From a virus: DNA of 64,000 nucleotides. A model generated the notes under the pieces. The model saw nothing but the letters and a program-made list of their open reading frames with translations, did no database searches and had not been told where the DNA came from. Position 1 is the stretch's first letter; each line of letters starts with the position of its first letter. The stretch lies in IMG/VR virus record IMGVR_UViG_3300042914_002215; one strand, 5' to 3'. The translations under genes were made by a program, and so were the position numbers. Below, in pieces: positions 6,777 through 63,196 of the stretch.

Positions 6777-6983
6777 ATGGATATCAAAGATATTATCAAC
6801 AATATTGCTGCTGGTGATAACATTGCAGCAAAAGAAGGTATAGAAAATGTTTTATCAGCCAAAGCGTTCGATGCGCTCCAAGGTCGCAAGCAAGAAATCG
6901 CTACAACTCTTTTTGGCGGGAAAGAGCAAGAGTCAGAAGAAGTTACAGGCGATGAAGAAAGCGAAGAAGCAACAGAAGAATGA
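6777..6983 (+). CDS. gp67: Small acidic prohead core protein (gp67-like)
   Basis: Directly after portal; acidic C-terminus; CATAAATA late-promoter-like box at 6744-6751. Confidence 0.6.
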   Translation: MDIKDIINNIAAGDNIAAKEGIENVLSAKAFDALQGRKQEIATTLFGGKEQESEEVTGDEESEEATEE

Positions 6984-7639
6984 AATCATTACTTGAGTTC
7001 AAATCTATTGTAGAAGAAGAGAAGTCAGACTACTCTAAGTTTGACGCACTTGTTCGTGCAGGATTGGCAAACAAGGCACAGTTGAGTCGTATTCATAAAA
7101 TCTTAGATAAGATGGGTGAAGAACGTCCTGTGTTCAATAATGCTGACCGTGAAATCATGCGTAATCTATTCAATCGCATGGTAGATTTAGTTTCAAGTAA
7201 ACAGATGTTTACCAAAACAAAACAAGCAATACGTGAAGAAGTGGAACTGAATGAAGGTCCAATGGATACACCATTAGTTCCAGATCCACCGGTAATATTG
7301 GTAATCAAACGTAAAGCAGTAAGATTGTATCCAGATGGCACCCGTATTGCTCTGTATTGGAGTGATAAGATAAAAAGAGTTTTCAGTTTGCCATATGGTC
7401 CTGCTGTTCAGCCAGTGATTCAAGCAGAAGAATATGTGCAAGAATTGATGGAGTCTGAAGAGTTATTACTAAATGACGGTAATAAAATTACTCTATCTGA
7501 AGAATCAAAACAACAAATTATAAACACATACGAACAGTTAGACGAAGAAAGCAAAGATTACTTCTGGCAGCAACTAACTGAATCGGTATCAACATTTGGA
7601 AAACTGTATGAATTTTGTAGACTTAATTCTGCAAAATAA
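6980..7639 (+). CDS. Hypothetical head-internal/core protein
   Basis: In head morphogenesis cluster; MKSLLEFKSIVEE leader; internal IREE, ELNE, LTE sites. Confidence 0.5.
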   Translation: MKSLLEFKSIVEEEKSDYSKFDALVRAGLANKAQLSRIHKILDKMGEERPVFNNADREIMRNLFNRMVDLVSSKQMFTKTKQAIREEVELNEGPMDTPLVPDPPVILVIKRKAVRLYPDGTRIALYWSDKIKRVFSLPYGPAVQPVIQAEEYVQELMESEELLLNDGNKITLSEESKQQIINTYEQLDEESKDYFWQQLTESVSTFGKLYEFCRLNSAK

Positions 7640-8069
7640 ATTAGACGAAGCCAAAGAACTTATCTTTGCACGTTTAGACGAGATTGCTTCTGTTCGTATG
7701 GAAGAAGCGAAACCATATATTGTTGATGCGATGTATGAAGAGATTGAAGTTGACGAAGAAGTATTAGAAGAAGCAGCTAAGAAACGCAATCCAAACATTC
7801 AGAAGATGGGTCGTATTACAAAAATACGTCGCCGTATTCGTCGTAATAAAAAAGGTAGAATTATAGTTCAGCGCAATGTTAAGAAATCTGGACTTAAAGG
7901 TTATAGAATTTCTGGTAGCACAGTCAAACGTATACCAGCAACAGTAAGATTACGCAAAGCACGTTTATTAAAACGTTCTTGGAAAACAACTAGAAAAAGT
8001 AAACTAAGACGTACATTGATGAAGAGAAAAATGTCAATGCGCCGTCGTAAAGCTATGGGACTAAAATAA
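7608..8069 (+). CDS. gp68: Prohead core protein (gp68-like)
   Basis: Acidic N-half, very Arg/Lys-rich C-half (KRKMSMRRRKAMGL); synteny. Confidence 0.7.
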   Translation: MNFVDLILQNKLDEAKELIFARLDEIASVRMEEAKPYIVDAMYEEIEVDEEVLEEAAKKRNPNIQKMGRITKIRRRIRRNKKGRIIVQRNVKKSGLKGYRISGSTVKRIPATVRLRKARLLKRSWKTTRKSKLRRTLMKRKMSMRRRKAMGLK

Positions 8070-8070
8070 A

Positions 8071-8433
8071 ATGCCATTTGAAATTACCAATACTCTAAGA
8101 GGATCGTCAATTGTACGAGCAGTCGATCCTGGTACATATACAATCACTCTCAATAGTTTAAGAGCAAATACTACAACCGAGACTGTTACTGCTGCTGACA
8201 TCAAACATGTTTTGTGGTCAACAAACGGTAATATTCGTATCACAAGAAACGGTGTTCCTTTGTTAGCACTTCAAAATGGTGGTGACATGGATTTTGATTC
8301 GTATGGATATTCGGTTGCAAATAATAACACTCAAAGCATTGTAATTGAAATCAATACTGGCGGAACAATTATTTTACATCTTGCCAAGTATGCAACATAC
8401 AATGTTGATCCATATACAGGAGTAGCAATCTAA
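8071..8433 (+). CDS. Hypothetical virion protein
   Basis: 120-aa ORF between gp68 and gp21, tightly coupled. Confidence 0.55.
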   Translation: MPFEITNTLRGSSIVRAVDPGTYTITLNSLRANTTTETVTAADIKHVLWSTNGNIRITRNGVPLLALQNGGDMDFDSYGYSVANNNTQSIVIEINTGGTIILHLAKYATYNVDPYTGVAI

Positions 8434-9083
8434 TGAAACTCATCAAAGAACATATTGAGAATGTAAGATATCTTACCGAAAAAACGGAAGATGGTAAGAA
8501 ACAACTTTACATTGAAGGTACATTCCTTGTTGGTGATACAGTCAATCGCAACAACCGTATGTACAAAATGGACACACTTCGTAACGAAGTGCAACGATAC
8601 ACAGAAGAATACATCAATTCTAATCGTGCGCTTGGTGAACTAGGACATCCAGACACACCATCTCTAAATCTAGAACGTGTGTCACACAAGATTACAAGTT
8701 TGGTAGAGAACGGCAATACATTTGTCGGTAAAGCACTGATCATGGAAACACCATATGGTTTGATTGCTAAGAATCTTATTGAGTCTGGCGTTAATCTGGG
8801 TGTATCTTCACGTGCTTTAGGTTCTGTCGTTATGACTAAAGAAGGTTACAATCTGGTACAAGATGATTTGCGTCTTGCTACTGCTGCTGATATTGTTGCT
8901 GATCCTTCCGCTCCAGGTGCTTTTGTTCAAGGCATTATGGAAAACAAAGAATGGTTATTCGTAGAAGGTCGTTTTGTAGAATCTGATATCGACTATTCTA
9001 AGCAACAGATTCGTAAGGCATCACGCAGAGAGATTGAGGCTGTAGGATTACAGCTCTTCGAAAACTTCCTACGAAAACTTTAA
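8433..9083 (+). CDS. gp21: Prohead protease
   Basis: ALGELGHP, GVSSRALGS, DIVADPSAPGAFV. Confidence 0.96.
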   Translation: MKLIKEHIENVRYLTEKTEDGKKQLYIEGTFLVGDTVNRNNRMYKMDTLRNEVQRYTEEYINSNRALGELGHPDTPSLNLERVSHKITSLVENGNTFVGKALIMETPYGLIAKNLIESGVNLGVSSRALGSVVMTKEGYNLVQDDLRLATAADIVADPSAPGAFVQGIMENKEWLFVEGRFVESDIDYSKQQIRKASRREIEAVGLQLFENFLRKL

Positions 9084-10235: not shown

Positions 10236-11579
10236 ATGTATTTGTCTGAAAATCTACAATCAAAATGGGAAAGCGTTCTGGATCATCCAGATATGCCAAA
10301 GATTGCTGACCCATATCGTAAAGCCGTTACAGCAGTCATTCTTGAGAACCAAGCTCAAGAAATGATCAAAGAAGGTGCAATCCTGAATGAAACAGGTTCA
10401 CCAACTAACTTTGCTGGTACAGGTGGTTTCAGTGGCGGTGCTGCTGCTGCTGGTCCAGTTGCTGGTTTTGATCCAATCCTGATCAGCCTGGTTCGTCGTT
10501 CACTACCTAATCTGATTGCGTATGACGTTTGCGGCGTTCAGCCAATGACAGGTCCTACAGGTCTGATTTTTGCGATGCGTACAAAATACTCATCACAAGG
10601 CGGTACAGAAGCATTCTACAACGAAGCTAACACAGCATTCTCTGGTGCTAATGGTGCTATCGTTGCTTCTTCAATGAGCATTTCTGGTAATACAACAGAC
10701 TATCTGTTTACAGGTAACGCTGCTCCAACAGGCGCAATGACAACTGGTTCTGCTGAAGCACTGGGTGATGGCGCTGCTGGTAACACATTCCAAGAAATGG
10801 CATTCTCAATTGAGAAAGTTACTGTAACAGCACGTACACGTGCTCTGAAAGCAGAATACTCAATGGAACTGGCACAAGACTTGAAAGCAGTTCATGGTCT
10901 TGACGCTGAGACAGAACTTGCAAACATTCTGTCTGCTGAAATTCTTGCTGAAATCAACCGTGAAGTTATCCGTACAATCTACAAGATTGCTAAGCCAGGT
11001 TGCCAAGCAGGTACAACAACCAAAGGTGCATTCAACTTAGACACAGACTCAAACGGTCGTTGGATGGTTGAAAAGATCAAAGGTCTGGCATTCCAGATTG
11101 AGCGTGAAGCAAATCAAATTGCAAAGACAACTCGTCGTGGTAAAGGTAACATCGTTATCTGTTCTTCAGACGTAGCATCTGCTCTTGCAATGGCTGGTAT
11201 CCTTGACTATAACTCAGCACTTGCTGGTCAAGTATCACTGACAGTTGACGATACAGGTAACACATTTGCTGGTACAATCTTCGGTCGTATCAAAGTTTAC
11301 ATCGATCCATACTTCCCAGTTGGCTCAACATCTGAGTTTGCTGTTGTAGGTTACAAGGGTACTAACGCATACGATGCTGGTATGTTCTACTGCCCATACG
11401 TTCCTCTACAAATGGTTCGTGCAGTTGATACTGGTACTTTCCAGCCAAAGATCGGCTTCAAGACTCGTTACGGTCTGGTAGCAAATCCATTCGCAGAAGG
11501 TACAGATCAAGGTCTTGGCGCTCTGAACGCACAGACAAACAACTACTACCGTGGTTTCCGTATTGCGAACCTGATGTAA
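10236..11579 (+). CDS. gp23: Major capsid protein
   Basis: GVQPMTGPTGLIFAMR, RALKAEYSMELAQDLKAVHGLDAE, FQPKIGFKTRYG. Confidence 0.98.
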   Translation: MYLSENLQSKWESVLDHPDMPKIADPYRKAVTAVILENQAQEMIKEGAILNETGSPTNFAGTGGFSGGAAAAGPVAGFDPILISLVRRSLPNLIAYDVCGVQPMTGPTGLIFAMRTKYSSQGGTEAFYNEANTAFSGANGAIVASSMSISGNTTDYLFTGNAAPTGAMTTGSAEALGDGAAGNTFQEMAFSIEKVTVTARTRALKAEYSMELAQDLKAVHGLDAETELANILSAEILAEINREVIRTIYKIAKPGCQAGTTTKGAFNLDTDSNGRWMVEKIKGLAFQIEREANQIAKTTRRGKGNIVICSSDVASALAMAGILDYNSALAGQVSLTVDDTGNTFAGTIFGRIKVYIDPYFPVGSTSEFAVVGYKGTNAYDAGMFYCPYVPLQMVRAVDTGTFQPKIGFKTRYGLVANPFAEGTDQGLGALNAQTNNYYRGFRIANLM

Positions 11580-54480: not shown

Positions 54481-55178
54481 TTCCAACTCAGCAGTTGTTC
54501 ATCGTAACATCTGCACTCAATCCAAGAATGGGTGTTATTAGTCGTGAAGATAGACTTCAACAAACAATTGATGGTCTAAAGTCATTACGTGAAAAATGTC
54601 CAGATGCAATTGTCATACTTGCGGAAGGCTCACCAGATAAAGTTGAAGAAGAGAAAATAAAAGAACTGGCAGATTATGTTGATATGGTAGCAGATTTCTC
54701 TGGTAATAGAGATATTTCACAGTTTGCATCAGTAGGCAAAAAGAGTGAAGCAGAGAATGTGCTCATGCTCAAAATGATGATGTTGTTGAAACAAGAGCCA
54801 AGTTTAATGAAACTTCGTCATTCAGTAAGTCGCATTTACAAACTATCGGGACGAACAATAATCAATGATGGTTTTGATATCAATGATCATAATCGGTTTG
54901 GTAAATATGTGTTCAAGAAACGTATGCCAACATGGCTACAAGGTGAACGTGCCGAGATTTTTACAGATTTGTTGATTACCAGATTATTCTCATTCTGCCC
55001 AAGTCTGATTGATGATTACATGATAGTATGTCAAAGAAACATAGGCGTGGTCAACGATGCTGGTATTGACACCGAACACGCTCACTTTTTCAATATAAAT
55101 CCAAATTACCTCATAGAACTTGACGATATTCACTGCCAGGGCATCATGGCAGGCACAGGAGCCACGGAAATCTACTAA
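54468..55178 (+). CDS. Hypothetical glycosyltransferase-like protein
   Basis: FIVTSAL, RLQQT, RIYKLSGR; within glycan island. Confidence 0.45.
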   Translation: MASIIPTQQLFIVTSALNPRMGVISREDRLQQTIDGLKSLREKCPDAIVILAEGSPDKVEEEKIKELADYVDMVADFSGNRDISQFASVGKKSEAENVLMLKMMMLLKQEPSLMKLRHSVSRIYKLSGRTIINDGFDINDHNRFGKYVFKKRMPTWLQGERAEIFTDLLITRLFSFCPSLIDDYMIVCQRNIGVVNDAGIDTEHAHFFNINPNYLIELDDIHCQGIMAGTGATEIY

Positions 55179-55188
55179 ATACTAAATA
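55174..55188 (+). promoter_or_regulatory. Tandem late-promoter-like boxes
   Basis: ACTAAATACTAAATA upstream of the 896-aa ORF; the ACTAAATA variant also precedes gp18. Confidence 0.6.
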
Positions 55189-55220: not shown

Positions 55221-57911
55221 ATGAAATTTAGAGATTTTCTACGTGAACAGAAGGAAAAACATGCCGTCCTGGCTTTTGGACGCATGAATCCAATCACAAA
55301 TGGTCACGAAAAATTAGTCAATAAAGTCAAAGAAATTGCCGATAAAGTCGGTGGTTCACATCACATCGTCCTGTCACATTCGCAGGACGCAAAGAAAAAT
55401 CCCCTTACAGCAGATCAAAAAGTCAAACATGCCAGCAGAGCATTTCCTGGCACAAACTTCAAAGCAGCGTCTAAAGACAAACCAACTTTCTTTGATCATG
55501 CAGAAGAACTGCACAAGAAAGGTGTAACACATCTGCACATGGTAGGTGGTTCTGATCGTACAGAAGAATATCACAGACTGCTGCACAAATATAATGGCAC
55601 ACATGAAGGTGCTCGTTTCAACTTCAAAAAAATTACAGTACACTCTGCTGGCGAACGTGATCCAGATGCAGAAGGTGTAACTGGTATCTCAGCATCAAAG
55701 ATGCGTGAACATGCAAAGAATGGCGATTTGAATTCATTCAAGCAAGGTGCACCATCATCAATGTCACATGCACATGTCAAACAAATGTACAACGATGTCC
55801 GTAAGGGCATGAGATTGCACGAAGAAATCATTCGTGAAGGTGTACATGACAAAGGTATTTTCAAAGCAGTATTCTTAGGCGGTGGTCCTGGCTCAGGTAA
55901 AGATTACGTTCTATCAAATACATTAGATGGTCACGGTCTTGTTGAGATCAATTCAGACAAAGCACTTGAATATTTGATGGACAAAGAAAATCTGGACAAG
56001 AAGATGCCAGATAGTGAAGAGAAACAACGTAATGAAGTTCGTAAACGTGCAAAGAATATTACAGAGTTGCGTCAACGTTTAGCCCTTCATGGTCGTAATG
56101 GTCTTATCATCAATGGTACTGGTGATGATCCTGAGAAATACATGAAGATCAAAGAGATGCTTGAGAAACTTGGCTACGACACACATATGGTTATGGTAAA
56201 CACCAAAGATGAAGTTTCTAAGGCAAGAAATATAGAACGTGGTCAACGTGGTGGTCGTACAGTGCCAGAGGATATTCGTAGAGAAAAATGGGAAGCAGTA
56301 CAACAAGCAAGACCACAGTTTGCAAAGATGTTTCGTGATAACTATGTTGAGTTTGATAACTCAGCAGATTTGCGTGAAGCACCACCAGAACTTGTTGATG
56401 CTAAGAAAAAAGAAATGGAAAATATCTACAAACGTATTCAAAAGTTTGTAGGTCAACCGCCAAAAGCAGATCAAGCAAAAGGTTGGATTGCAACAGAATT
56501 AGGTAAGAAAGATACAGCACCGATTCGTCGTGATACAAAGCCACACGATGCTGCTGGCACACATGATCAAATGAATACGATGGGTCTAGAGTATTATGGT
56601 TTTGGTCGTTACGGCAAAGATGGCAAAGTAACTCATCGTTCAGTACATGGTTCACTTGTGCCAGTAGAGAAGATTGCAAAAACTGTAGAGACACATCAAA
56701 AGAAAATGCAAAAGATGAATGAGGCAGTCACAGTCTCAATCACTGGCGATACAGTAGAAGAAGTAACACGCACAATCAAGTTTTTGAAAACAGATGATGA
56801 AGTAGAAATGGCAGAGGAAGAAGAAGTAAATACAATGTCCGATCCTGGTGCATACAATTTACTCACACTCGGTCATGGCATGATCAAAGAAGATTTACGT
56901 CAATGGTTTGATCCAAAACATCCAAAGGGTGGATGGAAACGTATCAACAGTAAAGGTGAAGCGATTGGTCCTTGTGCCCGTGAGCCAGGTGAAGCAAAAC
57001 CAAAATGCATGTCAAATGAAAAACGTGCATCACTATCCAAGAAAGAACGTGCTTCAGCAGTCGCAGCAAAACGCCGTCACGATCCAAATCCAGAACGTCA
57101 AGGTAAACCGATCAATGTATCAAGTTTTGGTAAAGGTAAAATAAGTGAAGCGGCATATGAGGGCAATATTGGCATGATGGAAGTCATGAAGTTTCATCAG
57201 AAGGCAACTGACGAGCAGAAAAAACAATTCAAGAAACACATGGCAGATAAGAATCATAAAGAAGCATGGAAGTTAGTTCAACACGTATCGGGTACAAAAC
57301 TTGTTGGTAAACAATTTGAAGAAACAGAAAAGAAACAAAAACTAATGACTGACAATAAAGGTAAACCAAGAGTGTTTCACTTTAGAATGTCAGCAGCAAA
57401 AGAAGCGCACCGTAATGGTGGCACTGTAGCAAAAGTTGGAAACAAATATGTTGTCAAACTAAAAGAGGACTTAGATGAAGTTTATACACCAAGTGATTCT
57501 ACAATTGAAATCCATTATGGACAGAATAGTTCCACCCCTTCCGCAAAAGAATTGGGAAAGGTTAGAACCAACACTGGAAGAAAAGAAAGACCCAGTGCAG
57601 ACAAACCCGTTGCCGAAGCAAGAAGAACCATCACCCTCAACACAATCAAAGAAAACTTCCAGAAGAAAGTCCAAGAGTCAATTGACAAAGGAATAGAACC
57701 TGGTATTTCTATGGCTGGTGCTGGTGAGTCTCCTGCACGTGACATGGGTGAGAAGTTGAGCAAGAAAGGTAAAGCAACACAAGTTGTGCCTAAGAGAATT
57801 GATGAGTTGACTGGCGATACAACAACAGCAAGCATCGGTGATCAAAAAGAAGATGAGTTGAAGAAAAAAGGTATCTCACTAACTACATTCAAAAAGAGAA
57901 ACTACGTATGA
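55221..57911 (+). CDS. Multidomain putative head-packaged polyprotein: HIGH-type nucleotidyltransferase, P-loop kinase, small modules
   Basis: MKFRDFLRE leader; FGRMNPITNGH and ISASKMR; GGPGSGK; modules bounded by IRE, MNE, IKE, ISE, LKE, VQE, IDE. Confidence 0.7.
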   Translation: MKFRDFLREQKEKHAVLAFGRMNPITNGHEKLVNKVKEIADKVGGSHHIVLSHSQDAKKNPLTADQKVKHASRAFPGTNFKAASKDKPTFFDHAEELHKKGVTHLHMVGGSDRTEEYHRLLHKYNGTHEGARFNFKKITVHSAGERDPDAEGVTGISASKMREHAKNGDLNSFKQGAPSSMSHAHVKQMYNDVRKGMRLHEEIIREGVHDKGIFKAVFLGGGPGSGKDYVLSNTLDGHGLVEINSDKALEYLMDKENLDKKMPDSEEKQRNEVRKRAKNITELRQRLALHGRNGLIINGTGDDPEKYMKIKEMLEKLGYDTHMVMVNTKDEVSKARNIERGQRGGRTVPEDIRREKWEAVQQARPQFAKMFRDNYVEFDNSADLREAPPELVDAKKKEMENIYKRIQKFVGQPPKADQAKGWIATELGKKDTAPIRRDTKPHDAAGTHDQMNTMGLEYYGFGRYGKDGKVTHRSVHGSLVPVEKIAKTVETHQKKMQKMNEAVTVSITGDTVEEVTRTIKFLKTDDEVEMAEEEEVNTMSDPGAYNLLTLGHGMIKEDLRQWFDPKHPKGGWKRINSKGEAIGPCAREPGEAKPKCMSNEKRASLSKKERASAVAAKRRHDPNPERQGKPINVSSFGKGKISEAAYEGNIGMMEVMKFHQKATDEQKKQFKKHMADKNHKEAWKLVQHVSGTKLVGKQFEETEKKQKLMTDNKGKPRVFHFRMSAAKEAHRNGGTVAKVGNKYVVKLKEDLDEVYTPSDSTIEIHYGQNSSTPSAKELGKVRTNTGRKERPSADKPVAEARRTITLNTIKENFQKKVQESIDKGIEPGISMAGAGESPARDMGEKLSKKGKATQVVPKRIDELTGDTTTASIGDQKEDELKKKGISLTTFKKRNYV

Positions 57912-58492
57912 AAAAGTTTAGCGCATTCTTAGATGAAGCTGGTCGTTGCTGGCCGGGATATAAACCAGTACCGGGTAAAAAGCCATATACATTAGGCTCA
58001 TGTAGAAAAGAAGAAGTTGAACAAGAAACTGAAACATTAGAAGAAAAGGGTCCTGGTCTGTGGGCAAACATTCGTGCAAAGAGAGCACGTGGTGAACGTA
58101 TGAGAAAGCCTGGTGAAAAAGGTGCACCAACAGATGCACACATCAAAATGGCAAGAGAAGAATACGAAGCAGATGATGGTCCACTCACAGAAGAACAACT
58201 AGAACAATTGAGACAAGAATCGGAAGCATGGCAGCGTAAGGAAGGCCAATCTGAGTCTGGTGGTCTGAATCGTAAAGGTATTGAATCATATCGTCGTGCT
58301 AATCCAGGTTCAAAGTTATCAATGGCTGTAACAACAAAACCAAGCAAATTGAAACCTGGTTCTAAAGCAGCAAATCGTCGTAAGTCATTCTGTGCAAGAA
58401 TGGGCGGAATGAAGAAAAGATTGACATCTGCAAAGACAGCACGTGATCCAGATTCACGTATCAACAAAGCATTGAGAAAGTGGAACTGCTAA
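57908..58492 (+). CDS. Basic modular putative internal head protein
   Basis: MKKFSAFLDE leader; modules CWPGY...SC, GLWANIRAKR, RRKSFCARM...KWNC separated by acidic linkers. Confidence 0.65.
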   Translation: MKKFSAFLDEAGRCWPGYKPVPGKKPYTLGSCRKEEVEQETETLEEKGPGLWANIRAKRARGERMRKPGEKGAPTDAHIKMAREEYEADDGPLTEEQLEQLRQESEAWQRKEGQSESGGLNRKGIESYRRANPGSKLSMAVTTKPSKLKPGSKAANRRKSFCARMGGMKKRLTSAKTARDPDSRINKALRKWNC

Positions 58493-59803
58493 GTGGCACA
58501 GTTTAGAACGGACTTACATAAGATAGATTCGGGACAAGTATTCACTCGTTATGAAGTGAATATGATGTCTGATCGTCTTTCACCATCTGGCACATTGACA
58601 GATGCGTTTGGCCGTTTGCGTATATCACAACCACTTACTCTATTTGATAGCACACACCGTTTTGCTGACAATGGATTGTGGGTAACATCAAACACAGCAG
58701 GAAATAGTTCATATGCTTTTGTGAATAATCAAAGCATGATTACGATGACTGTAGAAACAACTGCAAATGCAGAAGTCATTCGTGAAACAACAAAAGTATT
58801 TTCATATCAGCCAGGCAAATCTTTGTTGATGATGTCAACATTTGCTATGGAAACACCAAAAGCAAATCTCCGTCAAAGAGTTGGATACTATGGTGCTGAG
58901 AATGGTATTTACTTTGAAAATGACGGCACAACAAACTACTTTGTATTGAAAAGTAATACAACAGGAACAATCACAGAGACAAAAGTTGCACAATCAAATT
59001 GGAATGTAGACAAGTTTGATGGCACAGGTTACTCAGCACAGAGTGGTGGTGCAGAACATACTGGTGGACTTGATGTGAGTAAAACAAACATTCTTTGGAT
59101 GGATATTGAGTGGTTAGGTGTTGGTGATGTTCGTTGTGGTTTTGTAGTTGATGGAAAAATGCTTCCAGCACACATATTCCACAATGACAATAAAAACATT
59201 GTTCCTTACATGACAACTGCAACATTACCGTTGCGATATGAAATCAAGAATACTGGAGTTACCGCAAGTAACTCAACAATGAAGCAAATCTGCTCAACAG
59301 TAATTTCAGAGGGTGGATACGAATTATATGGCTCACAACAGGCAATTCAAACACCTGTCACTGCTCCAATAGATTTGCCTGTCCCAGGAACATATTATAA
59401 TTTGATTTCTTTGAGATTGAAATCGGGTAGATTAGACGCAGTTGCTATTCTTACTGCAATTTCATTGCTGGGTGTGACAAACAATGCATACTATAACTGG
59501 CAAGTTAGAGCGAGCGGTACTACAACAGGTGGAACATGGGTAAGTGCAGGAGATAATTCTGCGATAGAATATAAAATAGATGCTGCAACGATTACTGGTG
59601 GAAGAATATTAGCATCAGGATTTACAACAGCCACAACACAAAGTGCTGTGCCTGTAGATATTCTCAAAGAAGCATTGTTCAAGTTTCAATTAGAAAGAAA
59701 TGGTTTAACCGGCACACCGTATGAACTGACACTGTGTGCCGCATCTCAAACTGCTGGTGCTGATATCTACGCATCAATGGATTGGGAAGAGATTACAAGA
59801 TAA
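58493..59803 (+). CDS. Putative virion structural protein
   Basis: GTG start; Thr/Gly/Ser-rich beta-type composition; DAFGRLR motif. Confidence 0.6.
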   Translation: MAQFRTDLHKIDSGQVFTRYEVNMMSDRLSPSGTLTDAFGRLRISQPLTLFDSTHRFADNGLWVTSNTAGNSSYAFVNNQSMITMTVETTANAEVIRETTKVFSYQPGKSLLMMSTFAMETPKANLRQRVGYYGAENGIYFENDGTTNYFVLKSNTTGTITETKVAQSNWNVDKFDGTGYSAQSGGAEHTGGLDVSKTNILWMDIEWLGVGDVRCGFVVDGKMLPAHIFHNDNKNIVPYMTTATLPLRYEIKNTGVTASNSTMKQICSTVISEGGYELYGSQQAIQTPVTAPIDLPVPGTYYNLISLRLKSGRLDAVAILTAISLLGVTNNAYYNWQVRASGTTTGGTWVSAGDNSAIEYKIDAATITGGRILASGFTTATTQSAVPVDILKEALFKFQLERNGLTGTPYELTLCAASQTAGADIYASMDWEEITR

Positions 59804-59826
59804 TAAAACTAAATCAGGAGAACAAC

Positions 59827-60870
59827 ATGTCAATTTTCAATGACAAAGCACTGAAAGGTGTAGCAGAAGCAGCAGCAAAAATCATGGCAGAAACAAGCCA
59901 TGGTCTAAAGGGTAATCAGCATAAAATTGATGCCAACAAAAATGGTAAAATTGATGCTCATGACTTCAAACTTCTACGTGCAGGTAAAAAGCCAGCGATG
60001 AAGAAAGAAGAAGTTGAACAAATTGATGAACTGTCAAGAAGTAGTTTAGCATCATATACTAATAAAGCAGCACGTAATATGTCTACAATGACGGGAATAG
60101 CCGCAAAACAAACAACACCAGGAGGTAATCCTAAAAAAGGCACCGAAGAAAAGGCTAAAAAAATTGCTAATACCATTAGCAAAAGAATGCATGGTATCAA
60201 TAAGGCAACATCTCGTTTGGCTAAAGAAGAAGTTGAATTGAACGAAGAAACAGAACAACTTCAAGAGTATGAGTCAAAAGGTGGTACATATCAGCACAAA
60301 GGTAATTACGGCACTTCATACAAGACAGATGAAGAAGGTAATGAAATCAAGCCAGCAAAACAAAAAGGCTACGGTGCTCGTCAAAACTATGTTCGTGGCA
60401 CAAGCACAGGCGAAAAGAAAAAGATGAAAGAAGAACTATCATTCACAGAAATGCTTGAACTGTACAACGAGCATGGTCTAAAAGTTCTTGCACCAATTGA
60501 AAAAGAAGAACAACAAATTGGTGATCAAACAGTTGAAGTTATTGATGCCGACAAAGTAAATGGTGTTGTTGCAACTATCGTTGAAGAGCCAACAGAAGAA
60601 GAGTTCAACAAAGAATTGAAAGATCAACAAGATAGTTTTGCTGGTAAAAAGAAACAACCAAAAGTTGCTGCTGGTAAAACAACTGGTGTAAAAGTTATGC
60701 CAGAAGAAGTTGAACTTGATGAGCGCACATTGACATCTGGTGAAGCCAAAAAGAAAGAAGAGTATGTCAAAGGCATGAAGAAAGGTCTTTCTGGTTTCAA
60801 ACAGCGTTATGGTGAACGTGCTAAATCAGTAATGTACGCAACAGCAACTAAGATGGCAAAGAAAGACTAA
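59827..60870 (+). CDS. Modular putative internal head protein with EF-hand-like motif
   Basis: IDANKNGKIDAHDF; modules separated by QIDE, ELNE, LQE, ELDE. Confidence 0.6.
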   Translation: MSIFNDKALKGVAEAAAKIMAETSHGLKGNQHKIDANKNGKIDAHDFKLLRAGKKPAMKKEEVEQIDELSRSSLASYTNKAARNMSTMTGIAAKQTTPGGNPKKGTEEKAKKIANTISKRMHGINKATSRLAKEEVELNEETEQLQEYESKGGTYQHKGNYGTSYKTDEEGNEIKPAKQKGYGARQNYVRGTSTGEKKKMKEELSFTEMLELYNEHGLKVLAPIEKEEQQIGDQTVEVIDADKVNGVVATIVEEPTEEEFNKELKDQQDSFAGKKKQPKVAAGKTTGVKVMPEEVELDERTLTSGEAKKKEEYVKGMKKGLSGFKQRYGERAKSVMYATATKMAKKD

Positions 60871-60871
60871 T

Positions 60872-62155
60872 ATGAAAGTCAAACCTCTAAAAATCAAAAT
60901 AAAGCAGCAGCCGCCAACTGCTGCTGAGAGGTTATATCAGAGACATCAGGCAATTCGTAAAGAAAAAGGATTGCCTGATCCATCCGAATATAAAAAGAAG
61001 TTGGAAGGTATGAAAGAAGATACCGAACAACTTGATGAGATGCCAGAATCAAGTATGAAAACACGTGATGTACATTCACACTTGAAGAAAGCAGGTTGGG
61101 CAATAGCAAGAACTGGTGGTGGTCATGACATTTATAGTCATCCACAAGCAAAGCGTATTATTGCCGTGCCAAGACATAAACAATTGAAAGCACCTCTCAT
61201 CAAAGGTATTCTCAAAGCATCAAAGGTATCTGAAGAAACAGAGATTGAAGAACAATTAGAGAAGAAGGGGCGATTCGTGTCTGGACCACCAAAGAAAACA
61301 TTCAAAGCACCTACGATTGTATCGCCAATGAAAGAAGCAAAAGACACACGTGAATATGATTATGAAGGTGATATGGCAATGTCACAACTTCGTTCATTGG
61401 TATTCAATGCAGAAGATTTGATGGAAATGATGGATGAGAATACAAATCTTCCTGAGTGGGTACAATCAAAGATTACACTTGCTGAAGATTATATCTCTAC
61501 AGCAGCAAACTATCTGCGTGGTGAATTGACAGAAGAAGTGAATCTAAATGAAGGTCGTCCATCTCAGCGTCATCCATTAGAAGATCATGATTATCACAAG
61601 AAGTCTAATGATGCATTGGTTCATATCGCAAAAGATGCTCATCAAGCAGCAGAAGCAATGAAGGGTCACAATACACAAGCAGAAAACAAGTATCGTGATC
61701 AAGCAAATGATTCTGCAACTGTAAGACATTGGAGAAGTAAGAATGGTATGCCTGATTGGTACAGAAAGAAATACGGGCATGTAATTGATGGTAAAGTAAT
61801 GCTCCCTGTACACACAGGTAGTATGAAAAAAGAAGAGATTGAGTATCTTGAAGAAAAGAATGCTCCAACTAATCCTGAACTGTGGTCAAGAGCAAAAGCA
61901 CTTGCACGTTCCAAATTTGATGTGTATCCATCAGCATACGCTAATGGCTGGGCAGCAAAGTGGTACAAGTCCAAAGGCGGTGGTTGGAAAACTGTCAGTG
62001 AAGAAGCAGAAGAGCCAAGCATGGCAGCAAGAACTCTGTCACGTAAAGCACAGATCGTAAAAGATGCTGCGAAAAGCAAGAAAAACGAAGCAGAAGAGGC
62101 ATCGGACAAGTTTCAAAAAGACCCCGAATTGTCCAGCGATATACAGAAAACATAA
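60872..62155 (+). CDS. Modular protein containing a HicA-like RNase domain
   Basis: LKKAGW...GGHDIYSHP....IAVPRH...LIKGILK bounded by QLDE and VSEE; further modules after LNE and LEE. Confidence 0.7.
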   Translation: MKVKPLKIKIKQQPPTAAERLYQRHQAIRKEKGLPDPSEYKKKLEGMKEDTEQLDEMPESSMKTRDVHSHLKKAGWAIARTGGGHDIYSHPQAKRIIAVPRHKQLKAPLIKGILKASKVSEETEIEEQLEKKGRFVSGPPKKTFKAPTIVSPMKEAKDTREYDYEGDMAMSQLRSLVFNAEDLMEMMDENTNLPEWVQSKITLAEDYISTAANYLRGELTEEVNLNEGRPSQRHPLEDHDYHKKSNDALVHIAKDAHQAAEAMKGHNTQAENKYRDQANDSATVRHWRSKNGMPDWYRKKYGHVIDGKVMLPVHTGSMKKEEIEYLEEKNAPTNPELWSRAKALARSKFDVYPSAYANGWAAKWYKSKGGGWKTVSEEAEEPSMAARTLSRKAQIVKDAAKSKKNEAEEASDKFQKDPELSSDIQKT

Positions 62156-62774: not shown

Positions 62775-62796
62775 GCGGCTGGCTTCGGTCAGCCGC
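62775..62796 (+). terminator. UUCG hairpin (terminator or stabiliser)
   Basis: GCGGCTGGC-TTCG-GTCAGCCGC; no strong T tract. Confidence 0.5.
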
Positions 62797-62803
62797 ATTC
62801 ATT

Positions 62804-63196
62804 ATGTCGTTTGAAAATCTAACTGATGAGAATATGATGTTGTACGCAGCCAAGGCCTACGATAAGCCTAACTGTATCATGAGTGAGTTTACCGAAGATA
62901 TGAAGCGATTGAATTATCTCAAACGACTATTCAGGCGTTACAAGAAACATGGTGAAATGCGTGAACGTCTGATACTCAATCACATTGTAGTTCTCTACAA
63001 TCTGTTCGGACCAGAAGTAACAACAAGATTATTGTTCTTCAGTGCAAATAAAGAAGATTACACAATACTGAAAACTTATTTGTTATTTCTAAATCTAATG
63101 CCCGAGCGTGTTCGTGGCATCAATGGCAAAGATATTCTGTCCTCTGATATAGCAGTTGATATGGATATAGCAGAAGTTCTAAGAAATCTAAAATGA
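62804..63196 (+). CDS. Conserved T4-like hypothetical protein
   Basis: YAAKAYDKP.C, RERLILNHIVVLYNLFG. Confidence 0.7.
   Translation: MSFENLTDENMMLYAAKAYDKPNCIMSEFTEDMKRLNYLKRLFRRYKKHGEMRERLILNHIVVLYNLFGPEVTTRLLFFSANKEDYTILKTYLLFLNLMPERVRGINGKDILSSDIAVDMDIAEVLRNLK

Follow-up and report, generated by a model that had tools for sequence, protein, structure and literature searches.

In a 64,000-nucleotide (nt) stretch of DNA from an uncultured aquatic phage (IMG/VR record IMGVR_UViG_3300042914_002215; hereafter, the window), an open reading frame (ORF) of 427 amino acids (aa), located at 60872..62155 on the + strand, encodes a mosaic, "beads-on-a-string" and presumably late protein, as judged from the ORF listing and its homologues. 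Residues 57–121 of this protein (61040..61234, + strand) form a module with the fold of the RNase toxin HicA. The window encodes a large terminase, a tail sheath, a portal, a gp21-type prohead protease, a scaffold and a gp23-type capsid protein; it has a GC content of approximately 38% and is part of a T4-like myovirus. We propose, with about an even chance of being right, that the 427-aa protein is a head-cargo polyprotein with HicA as one of its units, which the prohead protease would free and which would be injected with the DNA.

The segment 61040-61234 corresponds exactly to codons 57–121 of the ORF. A sequence-only reading of the window had placed a 65-aa HicA-like module here, citing a peptide that corresponds to residues 62–117, and had proposed a hidden Markov model (HMM) search against the HicA family as a check. 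That search detected Pfam HicA_toxin (PF07927) at residues 65–117 with E=1.7e-10 and 41.3 bits, above the curated gathering cut-off of 27 bits. PHROG 353, annotated "toxin", matched the 427-aa ORF at 7.5e-13, and a PDB phmmer search with the module retrieved 1whz (TTHA1913) as well as 4c26 and 6g26, which are structures of Burkholderia pseudomallei HicA. In the AlphaFold model, residues 60–118 had a predicted local distance difference test (pLDDT) score of approximately 80, and the order of elements was alpha-beta-beta-beta-alpha (H64-73, E77-82, E85-89, E96-100, H107-117), resembling a double-stranded-RNA-binding domain (dsRBD). The five best Foldseek matches in the PDB were all HicA, the first being 6g26_E with a target template-modelling (TM) score of 0.83 and a root-mean-square deviation of 1.1 Å. 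Sequence families, structures and fold thereby agree on the identity of the module. When the whole 427-aa model was submitted to Foldseek, HicA was the sole module recognised, and no HicB-like fold was found.

The catalytic G-x-H His that the sequence-only reading had pointed out is likewise present. Codons 83–85 (61118..61126, + strand) encode G83-G84-H85, a turn with the candidate catalytic His that lines up with G22-S23-H24 of B. pseudomallei HicA, so that H85 occupies the position of the H24A mutation of 4c26. In B. pseudomallei HicA, both G22 and H24 are needed for toxicity, which is lost in the G22C and H24A mutants (PMC3969222). The His of the G-x-H turn was conserved in at least 90% of 95 mosaic proteins. 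These similarities indicate that the module is a HicA-type RNase domain, which is probably catalytically competent. In size it departs from the usual HicA, a free-standing protein of approximately 60–100 aa, because it is embedded in 427 aa. The module appears to have been captured from a bacterial hicAB pair and to have become an interchangeable unit of a hypervariable basic late protein.

The sequence-only reading had also stated that the window contains no HicB, and our searches agreed. Pfam gave zero matches to HicB families among the six neighbouring ORFs, and zero matches to HicB were obtained at E<5e-4 among the 36 small + strand ORFs of the window. For the search beyond the window, we used as a stand-in the complete syntenic relative G001 (172,439 bp, terminal repeats, 100% complete), in which the orthologue of the mosaic protein is 80% identical and the N-terminus of the capsid protein 97% identical to that of the window. 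A six-frame search of G001 detected no HicB: PF15919 gave only one 15-bit match, which contained three stops, and PF05534 gave none. Within G001, HicA was confined to the orthologue of the 427-aa ORF. As a positive control, a free-standing 59-aa HicA with 51% identity to the module was found to have a PF15919 HicB gene immediately downstream. In the window and in G001, no match to a HicB family accompanied the HicA module, unlike in a type II HicAB pair.

The protein that carries HicA belongs to a large and variable family. More than 5,500 homologues of the whole protein were found, and PF07927 was present in 119 of the best 120, which were 391–652 aa long. In an alignment of 24 homologues, conserved modules were separated by acidic linkers, extra cassettes were gained or lost exactly at the linkers, and the HicA module was the best-conserved segment. 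The 65-aa module alone was searched against 1.84 billion cluster representatives, and 250 matches were returned. Approximately 90 of the best matches (50%-identity clusters) were proteins of 125–1097 aa in which the module was located anywhere from residue 1 to residue 768, and free HicAs of 58–90 aa turned up only from approximately 50% identity downward. All of the 95 HicA-bearing cluster representatives scanned matched PF07927. Megablast of the region against isolate phages gave no match, and a literature search for HicA together with cyanophages or the prohead protease found nothing relevant, which leaves the module undescribed there.

The modules beside HicA vary between phages, which argues against an obligate partner, and modules of the ORF that precedes the HicA gene in the window (59782..60870) stand directly before HicA in other phages. 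In two relatives, L092 (8001-9983) and L093 (885-3266), the gene at the matching position encodes an ADP-ribosyltransferase joined with HicA and HicA joined with DUF5824, respectively; both genes are placed just upstream of a conserved 186–192-aa gene and a DUF7207 gene. Because the composition of the matching-position gene differs in these relatives, the mosaic locus is a hot spot of module exchange. Among relatives, HicA is joined with an Alt-like ADP-ribosyltransferase (P0144, 50.5 bits) or with a Zeta-toxin/AAA_33 kinase in a protein that starts MKFTDFLTE (P0163). In the window ORF, HicA is the sole effector recognisable by Pfam or Foldseek. The mosaic proteins are basic, with isoelectric points (pI) of 9–10 (9.1 for the window ORF), unlike the acidic scaffold. 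Compared with free HicAs, embedded HicAs contain approximately half the Glu, have L-K-K instead of L-E-x in helix 1, and show fewer internal [LIVM]-x-E sites; these differences are a trend only and are confounded by relatedness, and in the count of internal sites a loose anchor misplaced several sequences.

The HicA module is bracketed by acidic linkers. The upstream linker EDTEQLDE (residues 49–56; 61016..61039, + strand) ends in L-D-E and, by the family motif, provides a candidate prohead-protease site before Met57. The downstream linker VSEETEIEE (residues 119–127; 61226..61252, + strand) contains V-S-E and I-E-E. The QLDE and VSEE flanks named in the sequence-only reading are found in these linkers, as residues 53–56 directly upstream of the module and residues 119–122 at its end. 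We analyzed the boundaries of 89 of the 95 embedded modules, each from a separate 50%-identity cluster. The upstream consensus was EEVEQLDE/MPGANMDTR (the slash marks the candidate cut, here and below), and [LIVM]-x-E made up the three residues before the first Met of the module in 74 of 88 cases, against a background of 2.6% per position in the same proteins. On the downstream side, the first [LIVM]-x-E was located 35–42 residues past the G-x-H turn in 71 of the 89 modules. At the upstream boundary, the conserved positions were a hydrophobic residue, third ahead of the cut, and the Glu that immediately precedes the cut, with variation at the residue between them, a pattern expected of a protease site rather than of a spacer. 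In addition, the linker codons differ at synonymous sites, which indicates that selection on the linkers acts at the protein level; linkers as recombination signals at the DNA level were rejected for the same reason.

Similar linkers separate other modules of the protein. EEVNLNE (residues 221–227; 61532..61552, + strand) precedes a GRPSQ module in a conserved context, EEV-x-L-x-E/GRPSQ, with variable cassettes inserted just upstream. EEIEYLEE (residues 321–328; 61832..61855, + strand) precedes a DUF5872-like module, again in a conserved context (EE-x-E-x-L-E-E/KN-PT) with cassettes inserted upstream, and this DUF5872-like module also occurs in cyanophage proteins. A linker regular expression, which was set up after inspecting the sequences, matched four times in the HicA ORF (0.135 expected) and four times in the upstream neighbour, ORF 59782 (0.16 expected); single matches were obtained in the scaffold protein and in each of two prohead-core ORFs located after the portal gene and before the protease gene. 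In the AlphaFold model, the linkers had pLDDT values below 50. A breakpoint test, in which BLAST homology blocks were examined for ends at linkers, showed a 2–4-fold enrichment only and was given little weight, because every sequence shares the linker and HicA and the test is partly circular. The residue after the upstream L-x-E was Met in 72 of the 89 modules, and free relatives begin at the same Met. Met57 (61040-61042) could be a kept start codon, a favoured post-cut residue or an internal start. Internal translation start at Met57 as a general route for separating modules was rejected, since the first residue of other modules is Gly, Lys or Ala.

A candidate processing enzyme is encoded in the window. 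The product of the gp21-type prohead protease gene (8433..9083, + strand; phrog_207 at 6e-72) shares 36% identity with T4 gp21, and the His (GELxHP), Ser (GVSSR) and Asp positions are conserved between the two. Prohead proteases of T4-type and giant phages all cut after Glu within a short motif (PMC5694885, PMC9026906), and the established motif in T4 is L/I-x-E (Black et al. 1994, as cited there). An alignment of the capsid-protein N-termini of seven phages revealed L-x-E followed by Thr or Ala, 8–12 residues ahead of a conserved Gly-rich stretch. In the window, this is L50-N51-E52 of the major capsid protein (10383..10391, + strand), the probable propeptide cleavage site. The junctions were L-N-E/T in the window, L-Q-E/T in G001, L-S-E/T in G002, L-M-E/A in P-TIM68, L-S-E/T in S-RIM8, L-T-E/T in S-SM1 and L-T-E65/A in T4, the last of which is the known cleavage site of the T4 capsid protein. 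A pairwise alignment with the T4 capsid protein had placed L-T-E65 wrongly and was superseded by the seven-sequence alignment. The presence of L-x-E at the capsid-protein junction suggests that the gp21-like protease of the window has T4-type specificity. Since L-x-E is kept at these junctions, the specificity required for release of a cargo is plausible in this lineage.

The mosaic gene is the last of five ORFs (55221, 57908, 58493, 59782 and 60872) that abut or overlap and form a gap-free operon. A motif scan detected two overlapping late-promoter-like ACTAAATA motifs (55174..55188, + strand), 40–47 nt before ORF 55221, and the same variant was present upstream of the sheath gene. More broadly, NNTAAATA motifs were located 13–52 nt 5′ of the sheath, scaffold, other structural and cargo genes, at positions 2735, 4474, 6744, 9088, 11644, 46010, 55174/55181 and 62151. 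The exact TATAAATA by itself was not enriched in the window (3 seen, 3.05 expected). No terminator-like hairpin was found on the + strand ahead of 62775. At 62775-62796 (+ strand), after the 192-aa ORF, there is a strong GC-rich hairpin of 9 pairs, 7 of them G-C, which is the first past the cargo operon. A conserved DUF7207/phrog_407 gene (62804-63196, + strand) follows the mosaic gene at a distance of a few genes, as in L092 and L093.

The first gene of the operon (55221..57911, + strand) encodes an 896-aa protein that, according to PHROG matches, contains a cytidylyltransferase, a P-loop kinase (polynucleotide kinase- or Zeta-like) and small modules; the cytidylyltransferase comes first, behind the leader MKFRDFLRE. 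The second (57908..58492, + strand) encodes a small mosaic protein that has MKKFSAFLDE as its leader and contains a DUF6321 module (Pfam, 1.3e-16). The third (58493..59803, + strand) is homologous to a "virion structural protein" of cyanophages (phrog_1645 at 5e-136) and is 60% identical to S-RIM8 gp145, which itself adjoins a large hypothetical protein in the interval from gp16 to gp17. The fourth (59782..60870, + strand), identified with the linker regular expression, is the neighbouring mosaic protein with four linker motifs. Two ORFs of the head-gene region have related features. ORF 6980-7639 (+ strand), at the position of T4 gp68, starts with MKSLLEFKSIVEE, similar to the T4 capsid-targeting sequence, and contains EEVELNE/G, a linker shared with the HicA protein. 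The first 54 aa of ORF 7596-8069 (+ strand, 157 aa), located between the genes for the portal and the prohead protease, form an acidic leader that ends in EEIEVDE. Its remaining 103 aa carry a net charge of +38 and look protamine-like, and the ORF product is a candidate for a cleavable DNA-condensing internal protein.

In T4, the leader MKTYQEFIAE is encoded twice. The leader of ORF 55221 (MKFRDFLRE) resembles it, and those of ORF 57908 (MKKFSAFLDE) and ORF 6980 (MKSLLEFKSIVEE) are of a similar type. Among 107 HicA mosaic proteins that start with Met, 28 begin with an MK-x-F-like sequence and 15 have a short leader that ends in Glu at position 9–11; in relatives P0172 and P0190, the leader is joined straight to HicA via L-D-E or I-D-E. 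An indirect link to virions comes from marine cyanophages. In purified virions of S-SM1, the T4-GC119 "structural protein" was detected by 13 peptides, the T4-GC190 cytidylyltransferase by 25 and T4-GC15 by 12 (Sullivan et al. 2010, PMC3037559). Both T4-GC119 and T4-GC190 have modules in common with the HicA operon, in which ORF 55221 starts with a cytidylyltransferase. The S-SM1 T4-GC119 protein has a DUF5872-like module in common with the HicA protein (pairwise E=0.004) and ends in a DUF6321 module, which is also found in ORF 57908. Two modules of the HicA protein, PEWVQSK (E=1e-11) and the DUF5872-like one, recur in gene 109 of S-SM2, another T4-GC119 member, whose linkers are of the KKEE-F-E-L-D-E type.

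According to our proposal, the mosaic protein would be synthesised late and become part of the prohead core, where the gp21-type protease would cut after the Glu of [L/I/V]-x-E linkers, i.e. at L-D-E56/M57 upstream and after V-S-E121 or I-E-E127 downstream of the module. These cuts would free a HicA of approximately 65–71 aa, which matches natural HicA toxins in size and would enter the next cell with the DNA and cleave RNA early in infection. An antitoxin would be dispensable because the toxin would be made only late in a doomed cell, and the toxin might also be restrained while fused. The sequence-only reading had envisaged a similar course, in which HicA is held inactive in the precursor or inside the head, is released by gp21 and is injected for host shutoff or against RNA-based defences. 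This interpretation stands in part: the HicA identity, the lack of HicB, the [LIV]-x-E brackets, the gp21 homologue and the late-looking operon fit it, but the T4-like leader is missing here.

Several points weigh against the proposal. The 427-aa ORF starts with MKVKPLKIKIKQQPP, with no L-x-E in its first 20 residues and no T4-like capsid-targeting leader, and opens with a different conserved N-terminal module (PTAAERLYQRHQ...) that is common to close relatives. At the upstream HicA site, Met would follow the cut, compared with Thr or Ala at the probable capsid-protein sites. The C-terminus of the free HicA 1whz, "GLTEE", resembles the downstream V-x-E of the module, which may have been inherited from the C-terminus of an ancestral HicA; because free HicAs end in similar G-L-T-E-E, the upstream site alone counts as independent evidence. 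The regular expression for the linkers was derived from the sequences that it then scored, and ACTAAATA departs from TATAAATA. The tie to the S-SM1 protein found in virions is through short modules common to both. The full protein and this type of HicA are both absent from the isolates of the phage collection, and hence no proteome covers the module. Late expression, packaging, cleavage, latency, injection, RNase activity and the RNA target are what we infer, and not what we observed.

Alternatively, the protein could be a multidomain late protein, virion-associated or cytoplasmic, that is never cleaved; its acidic EEVE-x-L-x-E linkers would serve as spacers, either flexible or helical, and as favoured joints for recombination, and HicA would act in cis by RNA binding or as an RNase. 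Such a protein would explain why the 427-aa ORF has no targeting leader and why homology blocks start and end near linkers, as recombination joints would; the model gives short helices in some linkers (120–132 and 321–327), and polyvalent virion proteins can be packaged unprocessed, as exemplified by the virion RNA polymerase of N4 (PMC5512222). We nevertheless consider it rather unlikely, because a spacer would not be expected to keep a hydrophobic residue and Glu around a variable middle residue, nor to show the same pattern as the capsid-protein propeptide junction. The synonymous differences among linker codons in the window, and the minimal proteins in which HicA directly follows a leader and L-x-E, also argue against it.

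The role of the released or packaged module could be other than RNA cleavage. HicA may have been exapted as a basic nucleic-acid-binding internal peptide that condenses or accompanies the DNA, like the internal proteins and peptides in T4 and with no RNase role. The mosaic proteins are indeed basic (pI 9–10) and built of basic modules, HicA has a dsRBD-like, positively charged surface (PMC3969222), and the protamine-like ORF with a similar acidic leader is located in the head-gene cluster. However, the G-x-H turn and a P-R-H loop are invariant or nearly so in the 95 divergent mosaic proteins, and simple charge neutralisation would need neither, so that this role appears improbable. We assign a still smaller probability to a conventional toxin-antitoxin or exclusion module whose antitoxin, be it an RNA, a further phage gene or one of the adjacent modules, has escaped recognition. 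That explanation draws on the facts that HicA normally needs HicB, that the nearest free relative has one, and that many modules of the protein lack a recognised function. It is countered by the absence of HicB from the complete relative G001 in the Pfam search and of a HicB-like fold from the 427-aa model in the Foldseek search, by the change of HicA-flanking modules from phage to phage, and by the context in the window, which consists only of late and virion genes, with no lysogeny or plasmid-maintenance context noted.

If HicA is indeed a cargo released by the prohead protease, a broader view can be offered tentatively, as one that could well prove wrong: aquatic T4-like phages may run a general "cargo-cassette" system, in which antitoxin-less toxin or enzyme domains and small basic modules are shuffled between L-x-E linkers. 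As polyproteins these would do no harm; after they had been loaded into the prohead, the protease would release them, and they would be injected as variable early effectors. The cassettes would include the HicA RNase, the Alt-like ADP-ribosyltransferase, the Zeta-like kinase and the cytidylyltransferase, in a polyprotein version of the arms race of the T4 internal proteins. Along with its DNA, a very abundant environmental phage group would then deliver effectors that include a preformed RNase toxin, polyprotein latency together with the capsid protease would take the place of the antitoxin, and the T4 internal-protein paradigm of "one leader, one cargo" would widen to shuffled polyproteins. 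A function would thereby be given to hundreds of virion proteins that are annotated as "hypothetical" in cyanophage-like myoviruses, such as T4-GC119, DUF6321 and DUF5872. The proposal also opens two matters to direct tests, namely what T4-like phages inject other than DNA and the reason for the fast evolution of such cargo, and the pair of linker and leader could serve as a packaging and release tag in engineering.

Among known systems, the internal proteins of T4 (IPI, IPII, IPIII and Alt), which carry a capsid-targeting sequence and are processed by gp21, are similar in being the diverse, basic and dispensable-looking cargo of a T4-type phage with a gp21 homologue (PMC9026906, PMC3012670). 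They also share the short MK-x-F-x-E-F-x-x-E leaders, which here are found in neighbouring ORFs and many family members, and the candidate cuts after the Glu of L/I-x-E; Alt has a further counterpart in the relative that fuses an Alt-like ADP-ribosyltransferase to HicA. The T4 proteins differ in having one leader per protein, whereas here many unrelated units with internal linkers are contained in one polypeptide, and the 427-aa ORF itself is without a leader. T4 has no HicA cargo, and the proteins described here are known from sequence alone.

Bacterial HicAB has the same fold, the same Gly/His turn and a toxin similar in size to the excised unit, and the free relatives at approximately 50% identity include a hicA-hicB pair. 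Unlike bacterial HicA, the phage module is embedded in 427 aa, has no HicB, lies in the late-gene context of a lytic phage, and shows a change of "L-E" to "L-K" in helix 1 and a halved Glu content. Polyvalent proteins (Iyer et al. 2017, PMC5512222) and MuF-fused toxins are also extensively mosaic and encoded among late or virion genes, and these multi-effector proteins are predicted to be delivered with the DNA; their effectors include toxin-type RNase domains and ADP-ribosyltransferases. In the 427-aa ORF, HicA alone is recognisable as an effector, and relatives combine it with an ADP-ribosyltransferase or a Zeta-like kinase. Iyer et al. 2017 (PMC5512222) mention neither HicA nor cyanophages. 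Pfam gave no match to the polyvalent hallmarks (zincin-like peptidase, ParB/DdrB, MuF) in the 427-aa ORF or the 95 mosaic proteins, and a further difference is that processing here would be carried out by the prohead protease at a repeated linker.

The T4-GC119 proteins of marine cyanomyoviruses are also mosaic and of widely varying length, with genes of 276–2985 nt (PMC3037559); Sullivan et al. 2010 (PMC3037559) are silent on their processing. The T4-GC119 members of S-SM1 and S-SM2 are without the HicA module, to which no record of the phage collection is a close match, and their gene is located between gp16 and gp17 (P-TIM68 and S-RIM8 have the same layout), whereas the HicA gene is located elsewhere. 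What they have in common with the HicA operon is the PEWVQSK, DUF5872-like and DUF6321 modules and the linkers of the KKEE-x-E-L-x-E type.

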